From: a virus
Lineage: Duplodnaviria > Heunggongvirae > Uroviricota > Caudoviricetes
Strand: one strand, 5' to 3'
Virus record (IMG/VR): IMGVR_UViG_3300025133_000025
Length of the DNA: 43,306 nucleotides
This document shows, one piece after another, positions 16,326 through 41,238 of the stretch (positions are counted from its first letter, which is position 1; every line of letters begins with the position of its first letter). The position numbers and the translations under genes were made by a program. Below the pieces are notes generated by a model. It saw only the letters and a program-made list of their open reading frames with translations. It did not search any database and was not told the origin of the DNA.

Positions 16326-16372
16326 CCTGCCTCCAATATGTACATTGTATCACGCAGTTAAGGGCGTGGAAC

Positions 16373-16780: not shown

Positions 16781-16791
16781 CTCAACACTCT

Positions 16792-20838: not shown

Positions 20839-23800
20839 CGAGAAAGCCTCGAATACTTTGTGCCAGTCATGATTTCAGGCTGCTTGAAGCCCATACGCTC
20901 TAAATCATACTTTGGATAAACCACTTCTTCACCAATCCCAGCGAACTCATGACCAACCCGGAAGATTGTATTTGCAAGCTCTGCAATCTCTTCATCAGTT
21001 ACGTCATTCCAGTCCTTATCCTTGAAAAATCGCTTCTTGCCTTGCTCTTGCTCAAGATAGAGGCATGACCATTGCTTATCCCACATATCACGAAATTGCT
21101 TAACTTTCGCAGGGATGTCAGCCCATGAATAATGCCACACGCATGGCATATCTTCGATGATTCGCTGCACAACACTCTCATATGCAATTGGATCTGTCAG
21201 GCGCAAGCGTTCAATATCAGCTGTCCAGAAATTTTGTGTCGGTGTTGATTGATAAGTATACGAATTAACATACTCACATCCATCACTCATGCCTGTTGCA
21301 GCATAAATTCTGCCATCAGGAGCCTGCCGACGTGCTCCAGCGTTAATTCCGTGTGTAATTAATGGATCGTTCTTGGAAAGGCGCCACTTCCATAGGTGCC
21401 TATCTCCACGGAGGTGCTTAGTGTCGCCCCAAAGTTCAACAACAGGCAACGCAAGGACACCAAAATCAGAAGAAAACGTCTTTGTTAGCTTCTTAATCTT
21501 AAGATAGTCATTTTCGTGCACAATTTCGTCACCATCCATTTGCCAGAGGTAGTCTCCTGTGCATAAAGCACGTGCAAATGCCTTCTGTTGGCCATCAATG
21601 CCTGGCTCGTTGAAGTCCCACTCCTTTTGATAAAGTTGTACTCTATCATCATTTCCGAACGCTTCTTGCAGTTTTTCCCATGTTCCATCGGTAGAAATGC
21701 CATCTACTACAACAACTTCATCACAGAAGCCCAGCATTGATGTAATTGACTGTTCAAAAGGGTACTTCAGGGCATTAAATGTTGTTGTATAGCCTGAAAT
21801 GGACGGAAACTGCTCTTCAAACGGTTTTCTTAAAACGGCCAGTACTCTGTCATCGGGCTGCACATCCAAACTAACTGCGGGTTCCCAGATATCCATCACA
21901 TTGTTATACACAGTAGCAGCTGCAATGTTGTTAATACAAGGATTGTCTTTATCAACAACACACTGGTCCTTGTAGCAGGGTGCTGCGCAACCCTTTCGGT
22001 CAACTGCTTCAATAATAGTAAGCCTGTCAGAACCATATTCTGTATGGATCAATTTGCCAGTACACTCAGGGTTTGATGATCCAAAAAGCGCAACGCCAGG
22101 CACATCAAGGTGATTTGCGACGTGCATCGGGAATGAATCAATTCCTACAAATGCTGTTGCATCACCAATGATTCCGGCAGCTTCTGTAAATGTTGTTTTT
22201 CCGCGTAGGTCTTCCACACTGCGATACTCTGGATCGTCAGGGCCACCAATTTGAACAACCCTGACACCATTTGATCTAAGATTATCAATGACATCTTGCC
22301 AATAAGCATAGTGGCGTGCATGACCCTTCTTATAGCCTGGATGAATCACTACATATGGCGAAGCATTGCTAAAACCTTCCAGGGGATCAGTCACAATCCT
22401 GGGAAGAAGAGGGCCAGGCTCGAGACCGCAGTGCGCTGCAAACTCTTCAGCCAGATGCCGCTTGTTTCTGCGGTTGACCCAATTTGAGCCCTGATACTGG
22501 ACAAACAGGTCTGGTGTGTACACTTCGTCCCAAATCTTATTTGTCAGGTCTGGTGTATGCATCCACGGCTGGAATTCAATCCAGTTATACCCAAGATCCT
22601 TAACTACACCCTTGAAAACTGGTTTTGTGGCGATATAGGCTTCAACAGCATCTGCAGCTAGGCCAGTATCACTTATGAGATTATCAATCACACCAGTTGA
22701 TAAGAAGATGTCACCAGCAGATTGCGGCATGGTATAAAGAATCTTATGTTTGTCACCTGGAAGTATGTTATTTGCTACCCAATATTCAACACTGTTTTTC
22801 TGGAAAAACTCATGCGCAGATGCCTGCACTAAGTCAACAAATTTTCTGCCCAGTACCCCTGGATTATAATTTTCTGCAATTTCCTTACTGAGCTTTTTTG
22901 CCCATGCGGTGGGTGTTGAAGCTTTGCTATAGAAGCGACGCATGATAATCTTGGCATCGTCCAATGACGGCTCTGCCCACATTACACCCTCAGGGATAAC
23001 GCCTTGCCAAACGAATGATGCAGGAACTGGCACAGGTGTAACAGGAACTGGTAACCAACGACGCTTTGCTTCACCAAGAAATGTAAGGTGTCCTGACCAG
23101 TTAGTCGCAATTACAGGAAGTCCGCATGCAGCAGCTTCAATAATCGGCAAACCATATCCTTCACCGTGCGTTAGTGAAACAAATGCTTTAATCTTGGGAT
23201 GGTTGTAAAGTGCAGCAAGCTCTTTATCTGTTGCAAAACCAGAAACAAGATAGAGCTTACACTTTGGCTCATGGCCAACTTGCTGAGTAATCTCTTTTAC
23301 CAGAAGTTCTTTAAGTTCTGCTAATCGTGCTTGCACAATAAAGCGATCTGGAATACTATTTCGAATTGCCGCAATCTTAAGAACTAAACCAACATCTTCG
23401 TCATTATGAAACTCTTCATAGAAAGCTTTAATTGTGTTGGTGATATTCTTTCTATCCTGCCCAAAATTAACGTTTACACCCCACTGGCCAACAACAAGAA
23501 AATTAAAATCTGTTGAAAACAGTTCATCTGTAATAGATTCTGCTTGGGCACCAGGGAAAAAAGTATCAATCTTAACAGATTCTTCTACAATTACAATTGG
23601 TGTTGTAATTTGAATCTCATGCTCTTTACCAGCTTTATGATCGTAAACCTCATACCTAGTCTGCTCCATGACATTCTTGGAATGTTCTGACGGAACAACA
23701 ATCAGGTCCATTAGATTACACTGTGGAATCCACTCAGGCGCAATTCTATCAGTCTCGATTCCTGCAGTTACACCGATATTGAATTTTGCCCGACGGGCAA

Positions 23801-24077
23801 ATTCATTTGGAATCGTCACCTGCACAGACACATCAAACACAGCGTTAAACTGGTCTTCTGCTACCTGTGATTTAAGATTCTCCATCTTCCCGCATGCATT
23901 TGCATATCTGCTAAAGGCATGATCAGTGACGGGCAGCCAACTGCATTGTCCCCACGGAATTTGGTCAGCATATATGTCATACTGGCCTGCTTCCATCAAC
24001 GCATCAAGAATCTGGCGGGCGTGAACGCCGTAGCCGCTTGCTGTTAAAACTGGTCCGCGAAAATGCAGTCGTGTCAT
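20835..24077 (-). CDS. Multidomain glycosyltransferase: GT4 + GT9 (ADP-heptose heptosyltransferase-like) + GT2-like
   Basis: 1080 aa. GT4 motif FVSLTHGEGYGLPIIEAAACGLPVIATN. GT9 C-terminal motif AAGIIGDATAFVGIDSFPMHVANHLDVPGVALFG (compare GNDSGPMHLAAALGxPxVALFG). GT2-like segment with VVVVDGISTDGT and DGDEIVHEND (DXD). Confidence 0.65.
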   Translation of the reverse strand: MTRLHFRGPVLTASGYGVHARQILDALMEAGQYDIYADQIPWGQCSWLPVTDHAFSRYANACGKMENLKSQVAEDQFNAVFDVSVQVTIPNEFARRAKFNIGVTAGIETDRIAPEWIPQCNLMDLIVVPSEHSKNVMEQTRYEVYDHKAGKEHEIQITTPIVIVEESVKIDTFFPGAQAESITDELFSTDFNFLVVGQWGVNVNFGQDRKNITNTIKAFYEEFHNDEDVGLVLKIAAIRNSIPDRFIVQARLAELKELLVKEITQQVGHEPKCKLYLVSGFATDKELAALYNHPKIKAFVSLTHGEGYGLPIIEAAACGLPVIATNWSGHLTFLGEAKRRWLPVPVTPVPVPASFVWQGVIPEGVMWAEPSLDDAKIIMRRFYSKASTPTAWAKKLSKEIAENYNPGVLGRKFVDLVQASAHEFFQKNSVEYWVANNILPGDKHKILYTMPQSAGDIFLSTGVIDNLISDTGLAADAVEAYIATKPVFKGVVKDLGYNWIEFQPWMHTPDLTNKIWDEVYTPDLFVQYQGSNWVNRRNKRHLAEEFAAHCGLEPGPLLPRIVTDPLEGFSNASPYVVIHPGYKKGHARHYAYWQDVIDNLRSNGVRVVQIGGPDDPEYRSVEDLRGKTTFTEAAGIIGDATAFVGIDSFPMHVANHLDVPGVALFGSSNPECTGKLIHTEYGSDRLTIIEAVDRKGCAAPCYKDQCVVDKDNPCINNIAAATVYNNVMDIWEPAVSLDVQPDDRVLAVLRKPFEEQFPSISGYTTTFNALKYPFEQSITSMLGFCDEVVVVDGISTDGTWEKLQEAFGNDDRVQLYQKEWDFNEPGIDGQQKAFARALCTGDYLWQMDGDEIVHENDYLKIKKLTKTFSSDFGVLALPVVELWGDTKHLRGDRHLWKWRLSKNDPLITHGINAGARRQAPDGRIYAATGMSDGCEYVNSYTYQSTPTQNFWTADIERLRLTDPIAYESVVQRIIEDMPCVWHYSWADIPAKVKQFRDMWDKQWSCLYLEQEQGKKRFFKDKDWNDVTDEEIAELANTIFRVGHEFAGIGEEVVYPKYDLERMGFKQPEIMTGTKYSRLSR

Positions 24078-25345
24078 ACCTCAAAAACCTCAAGCTGTGT
24101 AGTGCGCTCACCATGTGTAACAACAGTTCGTTGAATTGCTGCATCCCACTTGCTAATCATTGTATCAATATCAAAGCGACGGCGGGCAGAGGCAGCAGCC
24201 TCAATGCCCATTGCTTTAAATTCTTCTGGACCATCATTCCACATATTGTACATGTATTCCATGGCATCACAAATTTGCTCATGCGATACATTATCTTCAA
24301 AGACATATGGAACAGGCTGCGTGCCAACGCAAGAAACTGCGGCAGGCCGTAAAAGAAGACCATTCAGTTTTCCAGTCTCCTTATCAGCTAACTGCTCTGT
24401 CATTCCGCCTGTCATTGTTGCAACAACAGGATTACCCGCCATCAGGCTTTCCAGTACAGACAGGCCAAAGCCTTCGGCATTTGAAATGTTGAATGTCACG
24501 TCAGTGGCGTTAATGAGATCGTTTATCTGCTCGCGGGACACAAAATTTGATGAAAGAATAACATCATCCTGCAATCCCAAGCGCTCTACGACGTTAATAA
24601 GATTTGGTCCCTCTTGGTCAAGAGGATTTGTATGCAAGAAGAGTTGAACCTTTCCCTGCACACCATCGACAGTGTCAATAAATTCACGAAATCCGAAAAG
24701 CAAGTCAGACGCTTTCTTGCGGCGGGCATTGCGGTTCATCCAGAAGATTGTGAATTTATCCTTATTTGGTCCAAGAATTTGAGCCCTGAGCTCACTTCTA
24801 CGTTCATCAGGGAGTCGCTTGAAGAGATCACTGGGTACTGCATGCGGCATGTACTCTGCGCGCTCAGCAAATCCAAGCTCTTCGACGACGGAGTGTGTAA
24901 GCTTGGAGATACACCCGATGAAGTCTGTTGACTCGTAAAAAGGCTTGTTGAATTCGGGAGCCGGGTTGTTATCCCAGACGTGCCAATAAAGGAGTGGTGC
25001 CACTGCTCGTACTTCATTTTCCATCTCCCAAAGCCATACGTAGAAACGTGGATCTGTGATGAACAAAACAGCATCAGGCCTGAAGTTCATGAGCATTGTT
25101 CTGATTACATTGGGGTCGCCGTAATTATTTACGGGATGCACAATCAGATCAGTCCCAAACTCTGGACTCTGGGTCGGTGTATAATCTCGATGAGCCTTCG
25201 CGCCTCCGAGATTCAAAACACTATAGCGTCCTGTTTTTACTAGACCCTCTGCAAGTAATTTTGCTTGCGTTCCAACACCTGAGGGTGATTCAATATGATC
25301 GCTAATTAAAAGCAATCGTGTCTTAGGCTGTTCTGTCATACTCAT
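24074..25345 (-). CDS. Glycosyltransferase family 4
   Basis: FNISNAEGFGLSVLESLMAGNPVVATMTGG matches the GT4 E-x7-E motif; 423 aa. Confidence 0.65.
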   Translation of the reverse strand: MSMTEQPKTRLLLISDHIESPSGVGTQAKLLAEGLVKTGRYSVLNLGGAKAHRDYTPTQSPEFGTDLIVHPVNNYGDPNVIRTMLMNFRPDAVLFITDPRFYVWLWEMENEVRAVAPLLYWHVWDNNPAPEFNKPFYESTDFIGCISKLTHSVVEELGFAERAEYMPHAVPSDLFKRLPDERRSELRAQILGPNKDKFTIFWMNRNARRKKASDLLFGFREFIDTVDGVQGKVQLFLHTNPLDQEGPNLINVVERLGLQDDVILSSNFVSREQINDLINATDVTFNISNAEGFGLSVLESLMAGNPVVATMTGGMTEQLADKETGKLNGLLLRPAAVSCVGTQPVPYVFEDNVSHEQICDAMEYMYNMWNDGPEEFKAMGIEAAASARRRFDIDTMISKWDAAIQRTVVTHGERTTQLEVFEV

Positions 25346-31144: not shown

Positions 31145-31294
31145 GTCCTGAAACGGAGCAATTGCTGGCCATTTTAAAAGAAATTGCCAGTACGGGTGAT
31201 TTACAAGAAGTTTATGATATTATGCCTGACTGCGGAGCTCCGCTGGACGCGGCGGTATGGAATTGGATTGAGGCAGGTTGCCCAGACGCTGATT
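31141..31294 (+). CDS. Possible small ORF (GTG start)
   Basis: GTGA overlap with the preceding stop; 51 aa ending at the TAG at 31292-31294, convergent with the kinase operon end. Confidence 0.25.
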
Positions 31295-32600
31295 AGTGAA
31301 AGCGAAACAGGCCAAGGTCAGCTGCGACAATTGCTCTGTCTGTCGGGCGAATAAGAACATTACCTCTATGCAAATCAACGAAGCGCATTCCATGTTTTTC
31401 GTACATGTAGTGAAGTGCATTCACAAGACCTGAGAGTCCTGACTTCTCCGCAGTTTTTTTCTGCATTTTCAAGATTGCATCCTGCGTTTCTGGATCTTTA
31501 CTTCCTTTAAAGTCTCTAGCAAAATACGCGCCAGCCTTATCAGCAATGCCATGTGCCTTCCAAGTTTGATGCTTGTCGTAACCCTTTGGCACAATCCCAG
31601 TTCGGACGCCAATCTTAACAGAGGCGTCCAGCCACTTTTTAAATTTAGGTATACCCTGTTCATTTTGCGACAGATCAGCAAATTTCCGCATATGCTGCGC
31701 GAAAGTCTCGGCGACCTTGTCACTAAGATTTAATGATTTGTAAAGCGCCTTAAGGATGATTGCAACCTTATCATCATCTTTCATTGCAATCCATAATAGA
31801 TCTTCTTTTGCTTCGCCATGCGGATTCTTTGGCCCCTTTGGGGCTTTTGGAATTTCCCATGGCTTTTCAATGCGTTTCAAATATTCACCAGCCTTGACAG
31901 CACCTGGAAGTTCATCAAGCTTCTCCATTAGAACAATGGGAAATTCTTTTCCAGTTCGCCTGATAAGCCAGACGCCATAAATCTTCGGAAAGTGTTTAGC
32001 GACATCTGGTGGCAATTGTTCATACAGGTTAGCAATGGTCTTATACGGTTCGATGTTGTCAGCACGGTTCGATGTGGGAATTTTTAATGCCATGGCCTGG
32101 CCGTTGTCAGGCATAAATTCAAAGACTGTGCCAAATGCACCGATGCCAAGAAAGGCGCCGACATCACCGGGCGGAAGAATCTTTTGCATGTGCCCTGAAA
32201 AAGCTTCGCCCTTTTCTTGACTAAAATATGTAGATGACGCACGCTTCAAGAAATCGTTTGAAAGATTAGCAGGGTTTTTCTTTGACGGCGTTTCAAGATC
32301 CGGATCGACGTAGATGGCGACTGCAGTCGGTTCCTGACCATGCTTTGTATCCAGGCTTCCACCCCTCCGCCGCCTCCTTCCGCCTACAGGCACTGTAGCT
32401 GGAAGTTCCTCTGCATTGATTGGACCGTGTGATGTAGGCGGCGTCTCAGGCCAGTCTTCCTTTTCTGCAACAAGGCCTGAATATTCCTTAACAACAGTTA
32501 CTGATATACTGTCAACATCATCATCTTCCTGATCATAGATATTTTCAATTACGCGATTGTAATTTTCAAGTGCGAGGAGCTGTGTTATTGTTGGAAACAT
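31293..32600 (-). CDS. Protein-kinase-like fold protein K1 (truncated ePK-like; ends 6 aa after the DLG)
   Basis: Gly-loop LGIGAFGTVFEF, AMALKI (VAIK-like Lys), catalytic loop VDLHRGNVLI, Mg-binding VAADLGLFRFH at the extreme C-terminus. Confidence 0.6.
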   Translation of the reverse strand: MFPTITQLLALENYNRVIENIYDQEDDDVDSISVTVVKEYSGLVAEKEDWPETPPTSHGPINAEELPATVPVGGRRRRRGGSLDTKHGQEPTAVAIYVDPDLETPSKKNPANLSNDFLKRASSTYFSQEKGEAFSGHMQKILPPGDVGAFLGIGAFGTVFEFMPDNGQAMALKIPTSNRADNIEPYKTIANLYEQLPPDVAKHFPKIYGVWLIRRTGKEFPIVLMEKLDELPGAVKAGEYLKRIEKPWEIPKAPKGPKNPHGEAKEDLLWIAMKDDDKVAIILKALYKSLNLSDKVAETFAQHMRKFADLSQNEQGIPKFKKWLDASVKIGVRTGIVPKGYDKHQTWKAHGIADKAGAYFARDFKGSKDPETQDAILKMQKKTAEKSGLSGLVNALHYMYEKHGMRFVDLHRGNVLIRPTDRAIVAADLGLFRFH

Positions 32601-33349
32601 TAGCGGAAAAGTCCAATATCTGAGACAACAAGCGATTTGTCAGTCGGGCGCACCATTATATTGCCGTGGTGCAGATCGTCAGGTTCGATATTCTGAAAAT
32701 CGATTAAATCTTCCATGGCATGATAGAACGTCGCCACACCTATGAACTCTGCAGTTGCAGCGTCAACATTTGACGTAAGGCTATAATCTGGTAGTTTGCC
32801 GGTTATAATCGCTTTACGCAGTAATTTCTCCATTTTGATCGGGAGAGGTTCAAGATATTCCATAAGGGTAATGACAAGACCTGAGTCAGGAATAAGCCAC
32901 GCTGCAGAAGGTCGACCTGATTCAGGAATAAGCCACGCAGCATAGATTTTCGGGAGGTGGCGGGCAGTTCCAGGCTTCGACGTGCCCTTTGCACGGGCCA
33001 CAAGTTTGTAAGCATCCGGCTCATCCTCACTGATTTTCAACGCCATCCTCGGCCCATGATCGGGAACGAAGTCCCAAACAACACCATAGGACCCCTGTCC
33101 AAGTACATCCTTGATTGTTCCTGCAGGCAAAAGTTGCTCCAGAGCAGACCTTACGTCAGCAGTGAAAATGCTATCGCGCGGAATACCATCAACATGCCCG
33201 GGTTCTGCAAGGGTCGGATCAACATAGATTTCTTTATATGCAAGATTTTGCACATGACCTGTTCGGGCACCTTGTTGTTCAAGCAATTGAACCATTGTAG
33301 GAAGCAGATCAATCATATTTGTAGAAGTTACCGATGTCAGCAACAACAA
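32600..33349 (-). CDS. Protein-kinase-like fold protein K2 (paralog; ends right after the DIG)
   Basis: LGQGSYGVVWDF, RMALKI, HLPKIYAAW, ITLMEYLEPLP, DDLHHGNIMVRPTD, VVSDIGLFR-stop. Confidence 0.6.
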   Translation of the reverse strand: MLLLTSVTSTNMIDLLPTMVQLLEQQGARTGHVQNLAYKEIYVDPTLAEPGHVDGIPRDSIFTADVRSALEQLLPAGTIKDVLGQGSYGVVWDFVPDHGPRMALKISEDEPDAYKLVARAKGTSKPGTARHLPKIYAAWLIPESGRPSAAWLIPDSGLVITLMEYLEPLPIKMEKLLRKAIITGKLPDYSLTSNVDAATAEFIGVATFYHAMEDLIDFQNIEPDDLHHGNIMVRPTDKSLVVSDIGLFR

Positions 33350-34283
33350 GGTGCCCGTCAGATTTACGAACCATTACATTATCATCATGCAAGTCCTGCC
33401 AGCTTATGCCATATCTTTCATGAATCTCTCTCAGCGCTTCGTAAAATGGCAGGATACCGAGAGATTCAAGTTTATCGTCACCTTCATCACCCAGGTTCTT
33501 CCAATGCGCACGAGATGTTGGAGTTATAGTGAGCATCGCCCGGTTATAATCAAACACATCAAGTGAGTTGTGCATTCTTGGCCCGGGCCTAATTCCAACC
33601 TCCTTGGCGGAATCAATAATCGCATCACGCAATCGAGCAGCCTGAGCATCATCCTCAAAATCATGGGGAGCGTTGAGGTTGTATGTTCGGCGAAGTCCTG
33701 CCACAGCGTGAGGCAATCGCTCTACCAATTCCGGCCGTGTTTCTGTATCAAGCAGGCCGAGGGTGATTCGCATAAGCCGGCCAACACGTTTATCACTTTG
33801 CACAAATTCTTCCCATGACATCCTATTTTCAGGATCCCCGCGGACCATGGCTGTCTTAATATTCTTTGGAAGCGGCGACAGGATTTCCATAAGCGTTATA
33901 ACAGTTTCTGTATCGACAGACCAAATGCCATAGATTTTCGGGAGGTGGCGAATCAGTTCCCGCGGCGCTGTGTCGTAAATCTTTTGAATTTCTTCGTAGG
34001 CCTCCGGCTCATCCTCACTGATTTTCAATGCCATCATAGGTCCATCGTCAGGCTTGAAACGGTAGACAGTACCAAATGAACCAGCGCCGAGGCGGGTCTC
34101 TACAACCCCGGGTGGCAGCACGTCAGCAAGGGGCGCCGGGGCGAGCCGATGTCCCCGAAGAAGACGAAGATCAACAGATCCTGGACCCTTGTTAATTTCC
34201 AGTTCTGGTGACACAAAGATTTCCTTTGTTGAAGCTGCCTTTGCAGCTTCAACAACCAGGGTTTTCATTGTGGGAAATGTCAT
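33309..34283 (-). CDS. Protein-kinase-like fold protein K3 (paralog)
   Basis: LGAGSFGTVYRF (canonical GxGxFGxV), MMALKI, HLPKIYGIW, ITLMEILSPLP, QDLHDDNVMV, VVADIGNFYKYD-stop. Confidence 0.6.
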   Translation of the reverse strand: MTFPTMKTLVVEAAKAASTKEIFVSPELEINKGPGSVDLRLLRGHRLAPAPLADVLPPGVVETRLGAGSFGTVYRFKPDDGPMMALKISEDEPEAYEEIQKIYDTAPRELIRHLPKIYGIWSVDTETVITLMEILSPLPKNIKTAMVRGDPENRMSWEEFVQSDKRVGRLMRITLGLLDTETRPELVERLPHAVAGLRRTYNLNAPHDFEDDAQAARLRDAIIDSAKEVGIRPGPRMHNSLDVFDYNRAMLTITPTSRAHWKNLGDEGDDKLESLGILPFYEALREIHERYGISWQDLHDDNVMVRKSDGHLVVADIGNFYKYD

Positions 34284-35326
34284 ACAAATTCACCGATGTC
34301 AGACACAACAACGTCGTTTGTTCCAGCGCGCATCATGATGTTATCTGTTTTAAGGTCATGCCAATCAACATTATGCTTACTTGATATATATTCGAGCGTC
34401 GCGTAAAATGTACGAAGACCTGTTTTGGAGAGATAGTCAAAGTGCCTTTCCATTTCCCTTGAATCCGTTGGTTTCGATGTAGGAAGCATAACAGCTGTGG
34501 CAGCAGCAGAAGTCCAGGTGTGGGACATGAACTGCGTTAAGCGTTTAATCTCACTCGCATGCTCGGGATGTAGTTGAACAAGGAGATTGGCGATGAGTCC
34601 GGCGAAGGCCTCGGCTTGGGCCTGTGTTGGAGGTGTTTCTGAAAATCTCCAGCGTTTTCGAATTTGCGGAATGAGCTCATCTGCAACGACAGCATAGAGG
34701 TTTGGAATGATGCTGTGTAGTCGAAAAATTCCCTCGTAAACGTATGCTGCAATATTTGCATCATCAGCAATCCATTTTGACCAGTCAGGTTCATGACCAT
34801 GATATTCTTCATATTCAAAGAATCCGTCAAGGGCGTTCTGAATGGAGATGGGGAGTTTGCTGAGATGTTCCATCAAAATTACTGTTAGGGTTGTATTCTG
34901 CAGGGCCAATTCCCAGACGCCGAAAATCTTTGGGAGGTGCCTGCTGTGCAGTTCAGGGAGTTGCCCACGAATGGCATATACGTCGTCGTATGGTTTGGTA
35001 TCGTCGTCACCGATTTTCACAACCATAAGCGGTCCGAAATCCGGTTTAAATTCAAAAACAGAGCTGTGCGCTCCAGCACCTACATATTCACCCACATCAC
35101 CTGGTGGTAAAACGTTTTGTAAGGTCTGGAACACTATTTTATCAACCCTGGGAACACCCAGGTGGTCAGTGGCCCGATCGGCTGTGCGAAGTGCGTCCTG
35201 GATGCTAACAGTGGATTTCGTGCCAGCTGGACGGATCTCGTCGCGGATAATTTCCTTGACCGCAATTTTGTTGTTGTCACCCCTGGGCGACAGTTCTGTC
35301 AACAGGTTATGCATTGTGGGGAGCAT
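34280..35326 (-). CDS. Protein-kinase-like fold protein K4 (paralog; start uncertain)
   Basis: VGAGAHSSVFEF, LMVVKI, HLPKIFGVW, VILMEHLSKLP, HDLKTDNIMM (compare HRDLKPEN), VVVSDIGEFV-stop. The start was set at the Met (MLPTMHN) at 35326; the open frame continues to 35806, but that part translates tandem DNA repeats. Confidence 0.5.
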   Translation of the reverse strand: MLPTMHNLLTELSPRGDNNKIAVKEIIRDEIRPAGTKSTVSIQDALRTADRATDHLGVPRVDKIVFQTLQNVLPPGDVGEYVGAGAHSSVFEFKPDFGPLMVVKIGDDDTKPYDDVYAIRGQLPELHSRHLPKIFGVWELALQNTTLTVILMEHLSKLPISIQNALDGFFEYEEYHGHEPDWSKWIADDANIAAYVYEGIFRLHSIIPNLYAVVADELIPQIRKRWRFSETPPTQAQAEAFAGLIANLLVQLHPEHASEIKRLTQFMSHTWTSAAATAVMLPTSKPTDSREMERHFDYLSKTGLRTFYATLEYISSKHNVDWHDLKTDNIMMRAGTNDVVVSDIGEFV

Positions 35327-35402
35327 AACATATATAGTGTCCACGCTGCCATCTATGCCATGGTGTTTCGTGGCAACGATTTTTTCCAGAAATTTTTGTG
35401 CT

Positions 35403-35486
35403 GGCAGGGCTGTTCTGGTGGTGCAATCCTGGCAGAGCTGTTCTGGTGGTGCAATCCTGGCAGAGCTGTTCTGGTGGTGCAAATTC
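35403..35486. repeat. 28-bp tandem direct repeat x3 (GGCAGAGCTGTTCTGGTGGTGCAATCCT)
   Basis: Three head-to-tail copies; copy 1 has 1 mismatch and copy 3 diverges in its last 5 nt. Confidence 0.85.
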
Positions 35487-35698
35487 TCGAGAAGTTGTGC
35501 AGAGGCGTTGCGCGGCTTCGAGGCCTTTCTAAATCTCCAACAACCTATCTGAGGCCTTTCCGCAGGCCCTCGCCGGCCCGAGCTGGGTTGCGCCGACGGG
35601 CGGCTAGAAGGTCCCAACCTGGTATGGAAAGGCCCTGAGGGTGGTGTGGGGCAGGCCTTTCCATGGCGCCAGCACCAAGGCATGCCGTGCCGGCGAGG

Positions 35699-35806
35699 GC
35701 CTATCTTTCCGCAGGGCCTCCGACCACAAGATAGGTCTATCTTTCCGCAGGGCCTCCGACCACAAGATAGGCCTATCTTTCCGCAGGGCCTCCGACCACC
35801 AACCAC
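35699..35806. repeat. 36-bp tandem direct repeat x3 carrying the CTTTCCGCAG promoter upstream box
   Basis: GCCTATCTTTCCGCAGGGCCTCCGACCACAAGATAG x3. A fourth partial unit continues into promoter P1. Further degenerate copies of GGCCTTTCC(G/A) lie at 35554 and 35656. Confidence 0.85.
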
Positions 35807-35814
35807 GGTCTAGC

Positions 35815-35843
35815 TTTCCGCAGCACCACCGCCTTGGTATATT
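35815..35843 (+). promoter_or_regulatory. Cassette promoter P1: TTTCCG-N17-TATATT with TGG upstream (extended -10)
   Basis: gcTTTCCGcagcaccaccgcctTGGTATATT; 17-nt spacer; about 65 nt upstream of the ATG at 35910. Confidence 0.6.
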
Positions 35844-35909
35844 AATAACATAAGGGGCACGGACCAACCGGCAATAAAGCTGGAAGGCCGGCCCCCTGGA
35901 GATACTATC

Positions 35910-36299
35910 ATGGCCAAGTGGAACCCCAGCTCGAAGGTGAACCAGAGCCACCTCCTGACCATCCTGCGCCGCGGCGGCAACGAGTACCTCGACATCGTCG
36001 AGCGCCTCTCCCACCGGGCCCAGAAGCCCAACGGTCCTGACGGCCTGAACGTGACCATCATCCGGGATGCGATCGAGCAGGGCTACCTCGCTACGGATGC
36101 TGAGGCCATCCTGTTCCCCTCCGAGGAGAACGTGAACAAGGCCAAGGTGGCCGCGGCCGAGGATGCCAAGGCGACGATGATCGACAACCTCCTGGAGCTC
36201 GGGCAGCAGGGAGCGGTCAACGCGATGATCCAGGCGGGGACGGTCAGCGCGGAGCTGGTCGCCGGCATCGAGGCCAGCCGGGCCGCCGAAGAGGCCTAG
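35910..36299 (+). CDS. MAK-family small protein, paralog 1 (unknown function)
   Basis: 129 aa; MAKWNPSSKVNQSH N-terminus shared with 3 other cassette ORFs; SD GGAGA 9 nt upstream; about 65% GC. Confidence 0.65.
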   Translation: MAKWNPSSKVNQSHLLTILRRGGNEYLDIVERLSHRAQKPNGPDGLNVTIIRDAIEQGYLATDAEAILFPSEENVNKAKVAAAEDAKATMIDNLLELGQQGAVNAMIQAGTVSAELVAGIEASRAAEEA

Positions 36300-36307
36300 G
36301 CCTGACA

Positions 36308-36336
36308 GGGCCGGCGGGGGCAACACCCGCCGGCCC
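36308..36336 (+). terminator. GC-rich hairpin (11-bp stem) after cassette 1
   Basis: GGGCCGGCGGG-gcaacac-CCCGCCGGCCC; no U-tract, so this may be an intrinsic-terminator variant or a processing/recombination site. Confidence 0.4.
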
Positions 36337-36393
36337 ACCCGTCTGGAGCTGGTCTCACCGGTCCTCAACCTCTCGGCTCCTCCACCCGGAGGG

Positions 36394-36413
36394 CCGAAGG
36401 TCCGGACCTTCGG
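36394..36413. repeat. Perfect 20-bp palindrome CCGAAGGTCCGGACCTTCGG
   Basis: Exact inverted repeat with no loop, in the inter-cassette spacer. Confidence 0.8.
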
Positions 36414-36469
36414 AGCCTAGGCTTTCCGCAGCCCTGCTGCCTAGGCCTTACAGCGTGGGCTGAGCTGGC

Positions 36470-36498
36470 TTTCCGCGGCACCACTGAAATGGTACAAT
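36470..36498 (+). promoter_or_regulatory. Cassette promoter P2: TTTCCG-N17-TACAAT with TGG upstream
   Basis: ggcTTTCCGcggcaccactgaaaTGGTACAAT; a near-duplicate of P3 including the downstream AAGGACGG(A/T)GGCCA. Confidence 0.6.
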
Positions 36499-36556
36499 AT
36501 AATTACAAGGACGGAGGCCATCATACAGATGGGCTGCCGATCCGACTGGAGCCACC

Positions 36557-36967
36557 ATGGCCAAGAAGAACCGCTGGAACCCCTCCTCCAAGGTCAACTG
36601 CAACCACGTCACGGGCATGCTCGCCAAGGGCACGGCGGAGTACAAGGACTGGGTCGGCCGGGCCTTCTCCGTCCCCGCCGACGCCGACGCCGAGTACTTC
36701 GAGGACATCATCCGCGAGGGCCACGAGGACGGCTACCTCACCGATGAGAATGTGGACACCCTGCTGGGTACGGGCCCCTCGACGAAGGACGTCCAGGCCG
36801 CCGCCGCCGGCAACGCCCAGGCCCAGATGATCTCCGGGCTGGCCAACGCCGGGCAGCACAGCGCGGTGGCCTCCATGATCGGCACGACCGTCTCGCAGGA
36901 CCAGGTCGACCAGGTCTACGAGGCGCTCAACCTGGACTTCGCCGCCTTGACCGCGCCGGAGGCCTAG
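36557..36967 (+). CDS. MAK-family small protein, paralog 2
   Basis: 136 aa; MAKKNRWNPSSKVNCNHVTGMLAKG...; the overlapping +/- ORFs at 36489-37024 are rejected as GC artefacts. Confidence 0.65.
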   Translation: MAKKNRWNPSSKVNCNHVTGMLAKGTAEYKDWVGRAFSVPADADAEYFEDIIREGHEDGYLTDENVDTLLGTGPSTKDVQAAAAGNAQAQMISGLANAGQHSAVASMIGTTVSQDQVDQVYEALNLDFAALTAPEA

Positions 36968-37049
36968 CCGGCCCAACCCTTCGCCCCGAGCACCATCGAA
37001 GCCATCGGCTACTAGCACCACCACAGTCGGCCTAGCAGGGAGGAGACTC

Positions 37050-37088
37050 TCTGTTAGGCCGGCCTAACAGCGACTGAGCAGCTCAGTC
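37050..37088. repeat. Two adjacent perfect palindromes (CTGTTAGGCCGGCCTAACAG; CGACTGAGC-a-GCTCAGTCG)
   Basis: A 20-bp exact palindrome followed directly by a 19-bp one, in the spacer after cassette 2. Confidence 0.8.
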
Positions 37089-37097
37089 GATTTAAGG

Positions 37098-37126
37098 TTT
37101 CCGCCGCACCACCGACTTGGTATAAT
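37098..37126 (+). promoter_or_regulatory. Cassette promoter P3: TTTCCG-N17-TATAAT with TGG upstream
   Basis: ggTTTCCGccgcaccaccgactTGGTATAAT. Confidence 0.6.
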
Positions 37127-37187
37127 TTAGGTATAAGGACGGTGGCCACCAAAACGGTGAATCACTGCTCCCGTTGGAGAATGAGAC

Positions 37188-37622
37188 ATGGCCAAGAAGA
37201 ACCGCTGGAATCCTGCCTCGCGTGTCAACTGCAACCACCTCACGGGGATGCTCCTGAAGGGCGACGACGCGTACCGGGACTTCGTCTCCCGCGCCTTCTC
37301 CGCCGCCCCCGAGGAGTTCGAGGCGATCGTCCAGGAGGGCCTCGACTGGGGGTACTTCACCTCGGACAACCGGGACGCCTTGCTCGGCACCGGCCCCTCC
37401 ACGGCCGCGATCTCGGAAGCCGCGGCGGGCAACGCCCAGGCGACGATGATCTCCGGCCTCGCCAACGCCGGCCAGCACAGCGCGGTGGCCTCCCTCGTCG
37501 CCGCCGGGACCTGCACCCAGGACCAGGTCGACCAGGTGTACGGCGCCTTGGAGCTGGACTACGCGGCCCTGATCGCCCCGCCGGCCCCCAAGGCGCCCAA
37601 GGCCAAGAAGGCCGCCAAGTAG
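37188..37622 (+). CDS. MAK-family small protein, paralog 3
   Basis: 144 aa; MAKKNRWNPASRVNCNHLTGMLLKG...; SD GGAGA upstream; Lys-rich C-terminal tail PKAPKAKKAAK. Confidence 0.65.
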   Translation: MAKKNRWNPASRVNCNHLTGMLLKGDDAYRDFVSRAFSAAPEEFEAIVQEGLDWGYFTSDNRDALLGTGPSTAAISEAAAGNAQATMISGLANAGQHSAVASLVAAGTCTQDQVDQVYGALELDYAALIAPPAPKAPKAKKAAK

Positions 37623-37642
37623 CCTAGCCGGCTGCCACTGAC

Positions 37643-37667
37643 GGACCGGCCCCTCCTGGGCCGGTCC
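37643..37667 (+). terminator. GC-rich hairpin (10-bp stem) after cassette 3
   Basis: GGACCGGCCC-ctcct-GGGCCGGTCC; followed by GGCCTTACAGCG and GGCCTAACAGCG half-site copies. Confidence 0.4.
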
Positions 37668-37767
37668 ACCGGCTGGGCCTTACAGCGTGAGCTGCGCGAA
37701 CGCTGATAGTCCTCTCTGAGCCGGCCTAACAGCGCGGGCTGAGCCCGCCGTCACAGTGCCACGAGGC

Positions 37768-37796
37768 TTTCCGCAGCAGGCCAACCATGGTATAAT
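37768..37796 (+). promoter_or_regulatory. Cassette promoter P4: TTTCCG-N17-TATAAT with TGG upstream
   Basis: ggcTTTCCGcagcaggccaaccaTGGTATAAT. Confidence 0.6.
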
Positions 37797-37829
37797 TTAG
37801 GTACCGGAATTGACCGGCTGGAGAACCCC

Positions 37830-38531
37830 ATGATCGATGCACTTACAATCTTCAACGCTTCCACGGATCGGCGGACCTACTGGCGCCTGAATCGTGAGGC
37901 GGGCGCTGCTACCCTGGATGAGGCGATCGCCTTGACCTGGGAGGACTTCTACCCGTACGAGCACATGCCCCAGGATGACGCCATCAACATGGATGGCATG
38001 GACGACATCTTCGAGGTCGGTGGACCGGAGAACATGGAGATCGTGACCCACGGCGGCGGGTGGTTCACCGTGGAGTACAAGAACGGTTGCTCCCAGGAGG
38101 AGGACACCCGCGACCACCCGGAGGAGTGGAACCAGTGGGAACAGGTCACCCGCCTCGTCAGCCAGGACTACCTCACCTTGGAGCGTGGGTTCACCGTCCT
38201 GGACGATACCCCGGCCGGCCACGGCGACGAGTTCGGTCGGATCTACTGGGTGATCGGCGACACCACGGAGCCGGGGACGGTCGATCGGAAGCCCAAGGTG
38301 CTCACCGGTGATGAGGTCATCGAGCGGTCGATCAAGGAGGGCATCCGGTCCGACCTCGAGTTGGAACAGCAGGTCCTGCCGCCGGTCGATCACCGGTGGA
38401 ACGACATGATGATGCAGAGCGCCGCCCTGGACATCCTGGCTGGTGTGACCATGGCCAGCATCCGCTACCACAGCTACGACGCCTGGGAGGATGTGGAGAT
38501 GCTGACCCGCCACTTCCACGGCAAGATCTAG
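37830..38531 (+). CDS. Acidic hypothetical protein (233 aa) in the cassette array
   Basis: SD GGAGAA upstream; D/E/W-rich; no family recognised; the antisense ORF 37797-38555 is rejected. Confidence 0.6.
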   Translation: MIDALTIFNASTDRRTYWRLNREAGAATLDEAIALTWEDFYPYEHMPQDDAINMDGMDDIFEVGGPENMEIVTHGGGWFTVEYKNGCSQEEDTRDHPEEWNQWEQVTRLVSQDYLTLERGFTVLDDTPAGHGDEFGRIYWVIGDTTEPGTVDRKPKVLTGDEVIERSIKEGIRSDLELEQQVLPPVDHRWNDMMMQSAALDILAGVTMASIRYHSYDAWEDVEMLTRHFHGKI

Positions 38532-38576
38532 AAGCCTCACCAGCTGGCTCAGCACCTGCGGCCTGGGGTAGCCTGG

Positions 38577-38598
38577 GCCGTAAGGCCGGCCTTACGGC
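38577..38598. repeat. Perfect 22-bp palindrome GCCGTAAGGCCGGCCTTACGGC
   Basis: Exact inverted repeat centred on GGCCGGCC, in the spacer after cassette 4. Confidence 0.8.
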
Positions 38599-38653
38599 GA
38601 AGAACAGCTCAGCCCCTCCCTTTCCTCCATACTTGGAAGCACAGACCGGCATG

Positions 38654-38682
38654 TTTCCGATGCATGACCGCCATGGTATAAT
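38654..38682 (+). promoter_or_regulatory. Cassette promoter P5: TTTCCG-N17-TATAAT with TGG upstream
   Basis: gTTTCCGatgcatgaccgccaTGGTATAATatattAGGAACCCC; a near-duplicate of P8. Confidence 0.6.
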
Positions 38683-38763
38683 ATATTAGGAACCCCGGCC
38701 GGTTGAATCAATGCCATGGCAGATGGCTGTCATGGCAACTGGCCACCTACTACAGGAAGTGAC

Positions 38764-39591
38764 ATGAACTGGAATAGCATCGCAAATGACCTTGACATCT
38801 GGAACAGTGGTGGGAAGATGAAGGCGACGATCTCGCTCTTCTTGAACAGCCCCGGCATCAGCCACGCCCTGTACATCATCTTCCTCGCTGTCTACGGTGG
38901 CTGGAACATGTTGTCGACCGCCGCGCTCCGCCAGGAGCCTGGCCCGTCGGCGTCCCAGAAGTACGAGTTGACCGACTACGTCAACAAGGACACCATCCTC
39001 AGCATCGTCAACGACGCCCGTCAGAAGGCCTGGAGCGATCTGGAGATCAGTGGTATCATGCCCGAGTGGAAGGTGGGCGGCATGGCGGAGCCGGCCTGCG
39101 CGATCCGGCCGGGCGAGGACAATCCAACCCTTGTCTTCAACAAGATCCAGTTCATCAAGCAGGTGCGTGAGGCCCACGGCTTGGGACTGAAGGAAGCGAA
39201 GAAGGCTGTGGAAGACATGTTGGTGCAGGCTTCCGGGCTCGTCGCCTTCCGTGGAGTCCGTGGGAAGCTCATTGAGCACATGCCGACGACTTTCCTCCAC
39301 ATCACGAACGTCCACATCAATCTCGACGAGCTCGTCTCCCTGCCCATCAACTATCGGCCGCATGCCTACGAAGGAGAGCGCAGGTCGCGTGACAACTCGA
39401 CCAGCGATGACACCTTCTACACGGTGGGGTGGTACTGGGAGAACGTGCTCTCCTTCGAGAACAAGCGACTCTTCCGGAGCTTGGACCACTTCCGAAGCAC
39501 GTCCATCGCAGTGAAGCGGCGCGCCCAGTACCTCAACCACGAGGGTGCCTGGGTTTACGTCGATGATGTCGCCACCGAAATCCTTGCCTGA
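38764..39591 (+). CDS. Membrane-anchored protein with a ribosomal bL12 (L7/L12) C-terminal-domain-like segment
   Basis: The start was chosen at MNWNS (SD AGGAAG 5 nt upstream); the longer frame starts at 38716. TM helix [45 protein letters not shown] aligns to E. coli bL12 [26 protein letters not shown] (GLGLKEAK identical). Confidence 0.55.
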   Translation: [275 protein letters not shown]

Positions 39592-39613
39592 GTGAAGGGG
39601 TTCCTCGGCGAGG

Positions 39614-39653
39614 GGCCCTGGGCCTGCTGTCTTCGGATGGCAGGCCCAGGGCC
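39614..39653 (+). terminator. GC-rich hairpin (14-bp stem) after cassette 5
   Basis: GGCCCTGGGCCTGC-tgtcttcggatg-GCAGGCCCAGGGCC. Confidence 0.45.
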
Positions 39654-39693
39654 TATTAGCGCTTCGCGCCGAAGGCCCCAAGACGCAGCTGGC

Positions 39694-39722
39694 TTTCCGC
39701 CGATCTACCGTGTTTGTATAAT
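39694..39722 (+). promoter_or_regulatory. Cassette promoter P6: TTTCCG-N17-TATAAT (TG adjacent)
   Basis: ggcTTTCCGccgatctaccgtgtttgTATAAT; downstream ATAAGGGGCGC resembles the P1 leader. Confidence 0.55.
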
Positions 39723-39743
39723 AATACTATAAGGGGCGCAGGT

Positions 39744-39759
39744 GCTGAAATATTTCAGC
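39744..39759. promoter_or_regulatory. Perfect 16-bp palindrome GCTGAAATATTTCAGC in the P6 leader (operator-like or leader hairpin)
   Basis: Exact inverted repeat about 15-30 nt downstream of the predicted TSS and 25 nt upstream of the SD; a second CTGAAA...TTTCAG palindrome lies at 40265. Confidence 0.45.
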
Positions 39760-39794
39760 AGTTGTTATAAACAGCCCCGACATGGAGAGAAGAC

Positions 39795-40190
39795 ATGGCT
39801 AAGAACCGCTGGAACCCTTCGAGCAAGGTCAACTGCAATCACATCACCGGGATGATCGCCAAGGGTGACGCCGAGTACAAGGACTGGGTCGCCCGGATCT
39901 TCGGCTCGAACAACGACACCTTCGCCGACCTGGTGACCGAGGGCAAGACCGCGGGCTACCTCACCGCCGAGAACTCCAACTTCCTGCTGGGCACGTCGGC
40001 CAGCACCCCGGCTGTGAAGGCGGCCGCCGCGGCCGACGCCAAGCGCAGCATGGTCATCGGCCTGCTGGGTGCGGGACAGGACACGGCGGTCGATTCGCTG
40101 ATCCAGTCCGGGCAGGTGGACCAGGAGTTCGTCGACAGCATCCGCGCGGAAATCGTGGATGCTGAGGAAGCTCGCCGCTCGTCGAAGTAG
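39795..40190 (+). CDS. MAK-family small protein, paralog 4
   Basis: 131 aa; MAKNRWNPSSKVNCNHITGMIAKGDAEYKDWVARIFG...; SD GGAGAG upstream. Confidence 0.65.
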   Translation: MAKNRWNPSSKVNCNHITGMIAKGDAEYKDWVARIFGSNNDTFADLVTEGKTAGYLTAENSNFLLGTSASTPAVKAAAAADAKRSMVIGLLGAGQDTAVDSLIQSGQVDQEFVDSIRAEIVDAEEARRSSK

Positions 40191-40198
40191 AGAAACGC

Positions 40199-40226
40199 CA
40201 GGCCGGGGGCTTCGGTCCCCGGCCGT
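40199..40226 (+). terminator. Hairpin GGCCGGGGGC-TTCG-GTCCCCGGCC (UUCG-type loop) after cassette 6
   Basis: 8-10-bp GC stem immediately after the stop; a CCGTACGG palindrome and a GCTGCTTTT run follow. Confidence 0.5.
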
Positions 40227-41238
40227 ACGGCGCTGCTTTTCAAAGCTCTTCGGCGCAGCCAGCGCTGAAAGACCGGTCTTTCAGAGAAAGCAGCTGAGCC
40301 CGCAGTCCTGGCCACAGCTCCCTGCCTGGCAACATTCCGACGCTGTCCAGCTTTCGGCAGCCTACATCACCTTCCGATGCGGCTCAGCACTGCAATGTGC
40401 TGAAAAGACTGCAATTTTGCTGCCCACTGCCCTGCCGATGCTGAATGTGAGATTCGAGGCATCTGCTCTTCGCTGCAGCAATCATATGAATACTATGCCC
40501 ATCCCGGTTTTTCACTATACCCGCCGGGATAGAAAGCAGGCTGGCCCATGCGCTGGCCTCGGCAGCCCATCGATGCAGCGGAAGCAGACGGTGTGGCGCT
40601 ATGATATCATTCCCAGCAAAACGCCACCAGACCTGCCGTGCCGCGACGCTCTGCGCTCTCCCTTCGCAACTCTGCTCCCGGCTTCTGGCGCTGCGCTCTG
40701 TAGTTGCGGGCACCACTCCACCCATTCTTGTTAGGCTTGAAAACCTTATCAGGCCATCTCGTCAGCTCCCATTTTGTGAGTTTGCATATGAATCAGTAGC
40801 GCCAGCTGTTCTTCCCTATTTGCAATGTGAAGAGCTGCTCAGTGTTGTCCGAGCTGTAGACATTTTGTTGTGTGATGTTAAAGGCTTAGGGCTCTGCTGC
40901 TGTCCCTGCAGCGTTGCTCCACCCCGCAGCGCCAAAGCAGGGAAACAGCATATGCTGATATCATAAAGCACACAGAGCTTACAGCACCAGCAGAGAAACG
41001 AGGTTTAGGAGTTGGGAGTTGTGGTATAGAACCTATCCTATTGGAGTCTATTGGTTTATCTGTTAGTTAGTTGTTGGTTCTGATACCATCAAAGGCACGT
41101 TGTATTGTAGCAAGAGTATATGAATGAGGCTGCCCAGCATTTCCGGCTGACCAAATTGGTAGGCTGCAGGGCAAGCCGCGTGAGTTCGGACTGTTGGATT
41201 GCAGTCCTGATGATATCTTCTGGCAACATCCACAGTAA
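40227..41238. other. About 1-kb apparently non-coding region with palindromes (candidate structured RNA or decayed cassettes)
   Basis: Only low-complexity R/S/P/C-rich ORFs on either strand (40159-40734, 40601-40966, 40384-40725). Contains the CTGAAAGACCGGTCTTTCAG palindrome and several short hairpins. GC is intermediate. Confidence 0.4.
40265..40284. repeat. Perfect 20-bp palindrome CTGAAAGACCGGTCTTTCAG
   Basis: Exact inverted repeat; shares CTGAAA/TTTCAG arms with the 39744 palindrome. Confidence 0.8.

Follow-up and report, generated by a model that had tools for sequence, protein, structure and literature searches.

Four overlapping kinase-like genes

We analyzed a stretch of viral DNA of 43,306 nucleotides (IMG/VR record IMGVR_UViG_3300025133_000025), which we refer to as the window. 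Four consecutive genes on its minus strand encode proteins that resemble eukaryotic protein kinases (ePKs), and we call these proteins K1 to K4. The first gene of the operon encodes K4 (34280-35326; 348 amino acids) and is followed by the genes for K3 (33309-34283; 324 amino acids), K2 (32600-33316; 238 amino acids), and, last, K1 (31293-32600; 435 amino acids). The start codon of K3 lies on the stop codon of K4 (ATGA, a 4-nt overlap), K3 and K2 overlap by 8 nt, and the start codon of K1 lies on the stop codon of K2 (TAATG, a 1-nt overlap). Because the gene junctions overlap, we consider K1-K4 to be a translationally coupled operon, as had been proposed in an initial annotation of this DNA. 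For all four genes, identical products are called independently on near-identical metagenome contigs from ENA/JGI (175.7 kb, 170.4 kb, and 18.5 kb). The initial annotation had assumed that K4 starts at 35326, and the ATG at this position agrees with the gene callers and with the N-termini of the paralogs. We rejected a 508-amino-acid, GTG-initiated open reading frame (ORF) for K4 that reaches 35806, as its N-terminal extension is merely a translation of 36-bp and 28-bp tandem repeats.

As judged from their sequences, the paralogy of the four proteins is far above chance: even the most distant pair (K1 and K4) has a BLASTP E value of 3e-25. Their identity to K1 over the whole length is 24-36%. 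When we scanned all six-frame ORFs of the window with a hidden Markov model (HMM) for the family, we did not find a fifth copy.

All four proteins contain the same motifs in the same order: a glycine loop; (M)(A/V)(L/V)KI, which includes the beta3 lysine; H(L/F)PKI(Y/F); an LME hinge; the catalytic loop DL(H/K)xxN(V/I)(M/L); and the Mg-binding D(I/L)G. In K4, these include the glycine loop GAGAHSSV (35057-35080), Lys104, the catalytic loop DLKTDNIM (34334-34357), and DIG (34292-34300). The corresponding elements are GAGSFGTV (34065-34088), Lys87, DLHDDNVM (33372-33395), and DIG (33330-33338) in K3; GQGSYGVV (33077-33100), Lys94, DLHHGNIM (32654-32677), and DIG (32612-32620) in K2; and GIGAFGTV (32124-32147), Lys173, DLHRGNVL (31353-31376), and DLG (31311-31319) in K1; all of these are on the minus strand. 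This accounts for every kinase motif in the initial annotation, with the refinement that the beta3 motif is MALKI in K1, K2, and K3 and MVVKI in K4. With the preceding residue included, the catalytic loops read VDLHRGN (K1), DDLHHGN (K2), QDLHDDN (K3), and HDLKTDN (K4), so only K4 has the lysine that is found in the catalytic loop of ePKs. None of the four has the arginine of the HRD motif.

The chains end shortly after the catalytic site. Each has an N-terminal extension of about 60 residues, an N-lobe (glycine loop, beta3 lysine, and alphaC), the hinge, alphaD, alphaE, the catalytic loop, and the DxG motif, and then terminates. There are 5, 3, 6, and 3 residues beyond the DxG motif in K1 to K4, respectively (the initial annotation gave 3-9). 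The activation segment, the P+1 loop, the APE motif, and helices alphaF to alphaI are all absent. Another unusual feature is the distance from the hinge glutamate to the catalytic aspartate, which is about 45 residues in PKA and is 183 residues in K1, 164 in K3, and 171 in K4. In these three proteins, a variable helical insert of roughly 120-140 residues lies between alphaD and alphaE (residues ~140-275 of K3). The distance in K2 is just 61 residues, so this minimal paralog has no large insertion. The initial annotation had described an insertion of about 150 amino acids in all four proteins, and this holds for K1, K3, and K4 but not for K2. The core of K2 is about 165 residues, and likewise for the fused modules of about 230 residues that we describe below.

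We also note two peculiarities of individual paralogs. In K1, unlike the other three, about 75 additional residues near the N-terminus (residues ~15-90; window positions 32200-32560) include the acidic run DQEDDDVD and the patch GGRRRRRGG. This segment may be analogous to the basic nucleic-acid-binding tail that targets the gp0.7 protein kinase of phage T7 (T7K). In K2, about 12 codons in the beta4-beta5 region are duplicated in tandem and in frame (AAWLIPESGRPS/AAWLIPDSG; 32879-32941), and this region was modelled at low confidence.

A protein-kinase-like fold

K1-K4 have the protein-kinase-like fold: the glycine loop, the beta3 lysine, the catalytic Asp...Asn, the Mg-binding aspartate, and the three-dimensional likeness to kinases are all present. 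Among Pfam families, the top match is Pkinase (PF00069) for K3 (28.7 bits), K1 (23.8 bits), and K4 (14.1 bits). These scores are under the gathering threshold of 31.7 bits, and PF00069 did not match K2 at all. Some homologs from the wider family that is described below do exceed the threshold, such as P0033 with 34.5 bits. Across 89 members of that family, 38 match Pkinase (with a best E value of 4e-12) and 16 match PK_Tyr_Ser-Thr. The PF00069 matches of the window proteins stop near position 145 of 263 in the profile.

A profile search of the PDB with the four paralogs returned protein kinases, except for one entry that is labelled as a member of the rhodanese family (3niz). The sequence of 3niz is near-identical to that of a CDK2/CDC28-like kinase (2qkr). 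We also built AlphaFold2 models of K3 and K2 from alignments of 89-96 homologs. The model of K3 has a predicted local distance difference test score (pLDDT) of 78.5 and a predicted template modelling score (pTM) of 0.72, and its weakest part is the insert (pLDDT 50-79); the model of K2 is somewhat better (pLDDT 84.8, pTM 0.79). When we compared the K3 model to the PDB with Foldseek, the hits were kinases only, chiefly via the N-lobe. Past the hinge, the K2 model has alphaD, a short helix, alphaE, the catalytic loop, two short strands, and DIG, while K3 has about eight additional helices between alphaD and alphaE. Neither the profile searches nor the structure searches placed these proteins in a non-kinase fold, which we regard as excluded, so the kinase-fold call of the initial annotation stands.

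Matches to more specific kinase families were weak or absent. The window proteins did not match the Pfam profiles for RIO1 or Bud32. They did not match the profile for aminoglycoside and choline kinases either (APH/ChoK; PF01636), and they lack the helical substrate-binding subdomain that follows the DFG motif in those enzymes. K1 has a match to ABC1 (PF03109; 15.8 bits, E = 0.0077) that is under the gathering threshold of 22.9 bits. The named kinases in NCBIfam matched far under the models' cut-offs, and the defense models of PADLOC gave only generic, sub-threshold matches to kinase domains (mad6, E = 0.0036; PD-T4-6, E = 0.011).

An alternative is that these proteins phosphorylate something other than protein, such as sugars or glycans, lipids, antibiotics, nucleotides, or modified DNA, in the manner of APH, choline kinase, the WaaP/Kdo kinases, or WbdD. 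The D-L-H-x-x-N loop of K1-K3, without the ePK lysine, fits with this, as do the faint precomputed matches to APH and ABC1 on one fused homolog, the weak matches to ABC1 for 4 of the 89 members, and the presence of two very large glycosyltransferase genes 6-10 kb away (20835-25345). We consider this alternative unlikely. The glycosyltransferase genes are cut off from the operon by a block of genes on the opposite strand and are absent beside homologs, and the best matches by both sequence and structure are protein kinases. In APH and ChoK enzymes, the substrate is bound by the helical subdomain after the DFG motif, and this subdomain is missing here. Furthermore, this type of loop is shared by T7K (as D-M-H-x-G-N), which is a genuine protein kinase (PMC13645617).

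A large family of truncated kinase-like proteins

In a word-indexed protein search, we found only the query itself and one fragment, and a profile query via the word index yielded 7 proteins. We then ran an HMM exhaustively against the representatives of 1.84 billion clusters (50% identity). At E ≤ 1e-3, at least 649 clusters were identified, of which 225 reached E ≤ 1e-10, and the proteins are mostly 300-400 amino acids long. The catalytic loop together with the DxG motif is present in 139 of the best 150 representatives, with a median of 6 residues after DxG, and 75% of these proteins have at most 9. The sequences thus indicate that the C-terminal truncation is a hallmark of the whole family and not an accident of one phage.

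We scored conservation across 137 representatives with a single module. The beta3 lysine, the catalytic aspartate, the catalytic asparagine, and the aspartate of DxG are each conserved in 97% of these, which includes the residues that the initial annotation had singled out (the lysine of ALKI and the two aspartates). The glycine of the glycine loop (0.98) and the glycine of DxG (0.96) are similarly conserved, followed by the histidine two positions after the catalytic aspartate (0.84) and the phenylalanine two residues beyond the glycine of DxG (0.83). The catalytic aspartate, the asparagine, and the aspartate of DxG are invariant in alignments of 89 sequences (A2) and 96 sequences (A3). Three other conserved positions are specific to this family or have no counterpart in ePKs: the hinge glutamate (0.99), an arginine four residues past the catalytic asparagine (N+4; 0.91), and the proline of an "FP" motif that precedes the catalytic aspartate by about 40 residues (0.91).

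These patterns bear on whether the proteins are catalysts. They might instead be pseudokinases, that is, decoys or scaffolds that bind ATP without phosphotransfer and that sequester nucleotides or the partners of host kinases. The missing C-lobe removes alphaF and the activation segment, which are generally held to be essential for ePK activity, and the glycine loop of K4 is degenerate (GAGAHS). However, all four proteins retain the beta3 lysine, the catalytic aspartate, the asparagine, and the aspartate of DxG, and conservation of these residues at 97% across the homologs is typical of active enzymes. Also, the core of T7K ends just past its DFG-equivalent and is highly active (PMC13645617). 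Because the catalytic residues are conserved, the "ATP-binding decoy" option that the initial annotation had raised is very unlikely for K1-K4. By their sequences, members of the family look like enzymes that are under selection for catalysis.

It is similarly improbable that the kinase fold has been put to some other chemistry, such as AMPylation (as in SelO), glutamylation (as in SidJ), or phosphoribosylation. The architecture is atypical, and the conserved arginine, proline, and hinge glutamate have no ePK counterpart, which could hint at another reaction. But the canonical residues for transfer of the gamma-phosphate are all kept, in the canonical order, and there was no profile or fold match to the SelO, SidJ, or FAM20-like families.

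A few distant members of the family have long C-terminal extensions, as seen in six-frame ORFs. These include L016:2313-5486 (1058 codons, with the module at 6-333) and L036:1872-3872 (667 codons, with the module at 71-402). Their layout parallels that of T7 gp0.7, with a kinase plus an effector domain.

Tandem arrays and fused modules

In 13 of the best 150 representatives, 2-4 modules are fused in a single polypeptide. We checked the DNA for three cases of fusion. Locus L009 has a single ORF of 1196 amino acids with four modules; L011 and L012 each have an ORF of 710 amino acids with three modules; and L008 has a double module of 656 amino acids, followed by two single-module genes. Other loci have tandem genes, as in the window. 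L010, from a phage that is related to that of the window, has three or more such genes, which pair best with K3 (then K2), K4, and K1, respectively, and their order differs from that in the window. In L013, there are two or more. Within an array, modules are mutually closest (40-54% identity within arrays versus 35% or less to outsiders, across 92 core columns), so duplication must have produced the arrays separately in at least four lineages.

In a sample of 27 unselected IMG/VR loci, we detected the module at 26, and each of these 26 has a single module within 6 kb on either side. L006, L007, and L014 are also single-copy. Because the unselected loci are all single-copy, arrays are a recurrent minority state, and a four-gene operon is unusual for the family. 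We discarded the ideas that arrays are the rule for the family and that four is a special number of modules (as in the window, L008, and L009), given the 26 single-copy loci and given that the four-module cases were chosen for their length.

Why would a phage encode four of these proteins? The initial annotation had suggested an arms race that drives the expansion of paralogs. The independent duplications in several lineages and a hybrid of K3 and K2 (see below) are compatible with an arms race but do not prove it. Another explanation is that the paralogs assemble stoichiometrically, as four subunits, into a single hetero-oligomeric enzyme in which a neighboring module covers the face that is left by the missing C-lobe. 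The overlapping start and stop codons favor equimolar co-production, modules are fused as pairs, triplets, or quadruplets in other phages, and at least four lineages acquired arrays independently. We nevertheless doubt that hetero-oligomers are the explanation. The loci with just one module imply that the module works without paralogous partners (although homo-oligomers may form), and the isolated kinase domain of T7K is active in vitro (PMC13645617). With a similarly low probability, modules that each cover the exposed face of a neighbor might form a hetero-oligomeric multi-kinase machine whose active sites, each decorated differently, jointly hit a broad panel of host defense and housekeeping proteins. 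If so, this would be a new quaternary solution to the problem of a kinase without a C-lobe and a new type of broad-spectrum counter-defense in large uncultured phages. More generally, and still as a long shot, the kinase module without a C-lobe might be a phage-specific building block that repeatedly becomes a multi-module "kinase battery," either as tandem genes or as fusions of 2-4 modules.

Among natural variants, the protein P0002 (231 amino acids, from a JGI/ENA contig of 1136 bp) is an exact hybrid, with the N-terminus of K3 up to RHLPKIY and then K2 from AAWLIP onwards. The junction lies inside a 22-nt stretch that is identical in K3 and K2, at the RHLPKIY motif. P0002 reflects either unequal recombination (contraction of the array) or a chimera from assembly. 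Just upstream of the three-module kinase of L011, and also in L012, is an ORF of 219 amino acids (L011:5947-6606) that resembles a degenerate fourth module. It keeps IGKGAFAVAY and HLPAVERFG, and it has FSPRNL in place of DLHxxN and DVL in place of DxG. The family HMM does not detect this ORF, and its sequence suggests that it may be a pseudokinase.

Phage context and neighboring regions

The window is from a large phage that resembles myoviruses, and its baseplate wedge protein shares 31-32% identity with the counterparts in Microcystis phage Mel-JY01 and Flavobacterium phage immuto. The window also encodes an RNase T-type exonuclease, a PD-(D/E)XK nuclease, and giant glycosyltransferases. 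We found homologs of the kinases on 27 viral contigs of 5-360 kb from IMG/VR. Genes that are hallmarks of phages lie beside homologs in L008 (capsid), L010 (Gp23), and L009 (DNA polymerase A, gp32, RecA, and DnaB). Every locus of the family whose DNA we read looks phage-like or is from a viral collection.

We did not find the family in cultured phages. The DNA of the operon had no match among 50,697 phage records, and tblastn with K3 or with a central member of the family (P0009) had no match in these same records, which are for cultured phages. Given the tblastn results, the family appears, among phages, to be confined to uncultured ones, at the sensitivity of BLAST. A search for related loci with alignment A1 did not yield any confirmed relatives.

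Upstream of the operon, there are two sets of tandem repeats. A 28-bp unit is repeated 2.9 times at 35401-35482, which is 75-155 nt upstream of the start codon of K4, and a 36-bp unit is repeated 3.4 times at 35701-35823, between the operon and a divergent GC-rich island. Each 36-bp unit contains the palindrome GATAGGCCTATC, and a degenerate core of this repeat is at 35556-35569. Neither repeat occurs elsewhere in the window. The number of copies varies between contigs L001-L003, which otherwise share 99.2-99.8% identity. The repeats behave like a variable-number repeat in a putative control region that separates the operon from the island, and they may have a regulatory role for the operon.

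The GC-rich island (about 35800-41000) has 56-67% GC, as compared to about 40-47% elsewhere, and contains orphan ORFs on the plus strand. The first two of these (35910-36299 and 36557-36967) share the N-terminus MAK(K)(NR)WNPSSKVN, and the ORF at 38716-39591 has a short match to the C-terminal domain of ribosomal protein L7/L12 (E = 1.5e-7). The gene content of the island is different in contig L002. A second region of raised GC content (about 16000-19000, with 54-56% GC) lies amid a block of structural genes with about 40% GC.

The two glycosyltransferases of the window are adjacent and have 1080 amino acids (with GT1/GT4, GT9, and GT2 domains) and 423 amino acids. Phages do not usually encode such a pair, which may be connected with glycosylation of the surface or of DNA. 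We considered a link between the operon and the phage kinases that act on 5-hydroxymethyldeoxyuridine in DNA (PMC5889632), and we dropped this idea: nothing in the window points to genes for thymidine hypermodification, and we did not make a sequence comparison. Finally, at two of the single-copy loci, a gene for a peroxiredoxin of the AhpC/TSA family lies within about 1-2 kb of the kinase (L006:3824-4474 and L007:4173-4835). The kinase cores from these two loci are 89% identical, so they represent one lineage.

A proposed role in host takeover

By analogy with T7K, and with some reservation, we propose that K1-K4 are constitutively active protein kinases of low specificity that function in host takeover or anti-defense and that were diversified by duplication. 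Each protein would bind Mg-ATP via the conserved lysine, asparagine, and aspartate residues and would use the catalytic aspartate to transfer the gamma-phosphate. The targets would be many of the proteins of the host (and perhaps of the phage), with little preference for sequence. Because the activation segment, the P+1 loop, and alphaG are absent, we expect that the kinases are unregulated and are poorly selective for peptides. If the kinases are targeted at all, the divergent helical insert and the N-terminal extension would be responsible, and the acidic and RRRRR segment of K1 is one candidate for this. Four diverged copies could widen the set of targets, or could partition it, during host takeover or counter-defense.

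Several observations weigh against this proposal. In K1-K3, the catalytic-loop lysine of Ser/Thr kinases is replaced by a histidine, and this lysine is likewise missing from small-molecule kinases, RIO, and ABC1 proteins. The insert, which was modelled at moderate confidence, could form a dedicated substrate pocket or could stand in for the C-lobe, and either would undercut the idea that there is no specificity. The similarity to T7K, which is the closest precedent for such an activity, is weak: in a set of 724 sequences, an HMM from alignment A2 gives T7K 14.3 bits (E = 8.7e-4), and eukaryotic cyclin-dependent kinases and AKT are at least as similar (about 20 bits). Lastly, the family has D-x-G-(L)-F where T7K has DPV, and the T7K paper tied DPV to hyperactivity.

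If the proposal is correct, and these enzymes work like T7K, then wholesale phosphorylation of the host would be a widespread strategy of phages and not a peculiarity of T7, and a very recent finding on how phages counter defense would become general. The family also offers natural experiments on how little a kinase needs for catalysis. It illustrates the grafting of specificity modules (the insert, the N-terminal extension) onto a bare catalytic core, and the evolution of arrays and fusions of kinase genes. The four-gene operon is a rich and compact test case for these questions.

Comparison with known kinases

K1-K4 share with the Hanks-type kinases (PF00069/PF07714) the GxGxxG loop, the beta3 lysine, the hinge, alphaD, alphaE, the catalytic Asp/Asn, and the Mg-binding aspartate, all in the same order. 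Unlike those kinases, they are missing all elements past DxG, they lack the arginine of HRD, and K1-K3 have a histidine for the lysine of the catalytic loop. The RIO and Bud32 kinases are similar in that they are small and do not have an activation loop or a substrate-binding subdomain. However, RIO and Bud32 retain helices after the DFG motif, their N-terminal elements are different, and they are cellular factors for ribosome biogenesis or tRNA modification. The ABC1/UbiB and APH/ChoK families also have a kinase-like fold with a histidine or another residue instead of lysine after the catalytic aspartate; for example, the catalytic loop of ABC1 is D-P-H-P-G-N. In both of these families, substantial helical domains that are C-terminal to the DFG motif form the substrate site, whereas the chains of K1-K4 end just past the DFG-equivalent, and all of the matches to these families are below the family thresholds.

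The most similar system that we know of is T7K. The initial annotation did not note that the proteins resemble T7 gp0.7 or that the family is large. In T7K, the motif DPV (residues 213-215 of 359) is equivalent to DFG, and the shutoff (SO) domain at its C-terminus is dispensable for kinase activity (PMC13645617). T7K itself therefore appears to be a natural kinase without the part of the C-lobe that follows DFG. The purified kinase domain is hyperpromiscuous and phosphorylates Ser, Thr, and Tyr in vitro without a preference for any motif, and T7K counteracts multiple defense systems (PMC13645617). The same was reported for JSS1_004, a homologue of T7K from the Autographiviridae that acts against DndFGH (PMC12345140). 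These papers, from 2025-2026, describe the family of T7K as small, with about 190 viral homologues (PMC13645617), and as nearly limited to T7-like phages, "almost exclusively in Autographiviridae" (PMC12345140).

Profile comparisons hint at this relationship for some proteins. PHROG 15752, which is the family of T7 gp0.7, weakly matched K1 (E = 0.0039), K3 (E = 0.017), and K2 (E = 0.1) but not K4. At E ≤ 1e-3, it matched 26 of the 89 family members, with a best E value of 2.4e-8; phrog_18305, which is described as "kinase," matched 36 of the 89. There is also a precomputed match, marked as "faint," of the homolog P0086 to PF27024 (Phage_T7_kinase). A Foldseek comparison of the K3 model to the BFVD database gave many entries for "protein kinase" from the Autographiviridae, with about 265 columns aligned. 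One of these, A0A7L7SMK1, figures in the analysis of T7K homologues (PMC13645617). The T7 gp0.7 sequence reads GFKMLGNGHFSAAY...IKV...GIPNVYDV...VVLDAL, and DPV is followed by a linker and by the basic SO domain. When we aligned the family to an alignment of T7K with hhalign, the two were colinear to the C-terminus of the family (probability 56%, pairwise E = 1e-4). The consensus of the family from W-DLHxxNVMxRP to SDVGLF was paired with a stretch of T7K that ends in TDPVSF, and the window proteins end at the aligned position.

The architectures also correspond. Like T7K, K1-K4 are encoded by a phage, have an N-terminal extension of about 60-70 residues ahead of the glycine loop, and have a catalytic loop of the form D-(L/M)-H-x-G-N-(V/I)-M. 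In both cases, the core stops a few residues past the DFG-equivalent, with no activation segment, no APE motif, and no alphaF-alphaI. The spacer between the hinge and the catalytic loop of K2 is short (61 residues), as it is in T7K (59 residues, counted on the sequence). On the other hand, T7K differs from this family in several respects besides its DPV motif. K1-K4 do not have the basic C-terminal shutoff/DNA-binding domain; most members of the family have a helical insert of 120-140 residues; and the conserved arginine, proline, and hinge glutamate are specific to the family. The phages that carry the family are large myovirus-like phages and other uncultured phages, not T7-like podoviruses, and the window has an array of four genes.

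Because the sequence similarity is weak, the analogy to T7K rests mainly on the architecture and on the phage origin. We suggest that the family is remotely related to the kinase domain of T7 gp0.7 and is its twin in architecture; the sequences are too dissimilar for an assignment to that family. Given the weak link by sequence, the DxG motif instead of DPV, and the missing SO domain, we do not file the family under T7K. By analogy, we have moderate confidence that these proteins work like T7K. In the literature that we searched, there was no description of a family of phage kinases without a C-lobe or of arrays of phage kinases. K1-K4 are best placed within a known kind of protein, the minimal kinases of the T7K type that are encoded by phages. 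What is new is a large metagenomic family that has its own signature, a helical insert in most of its members, and, rarely, an array of four genes.

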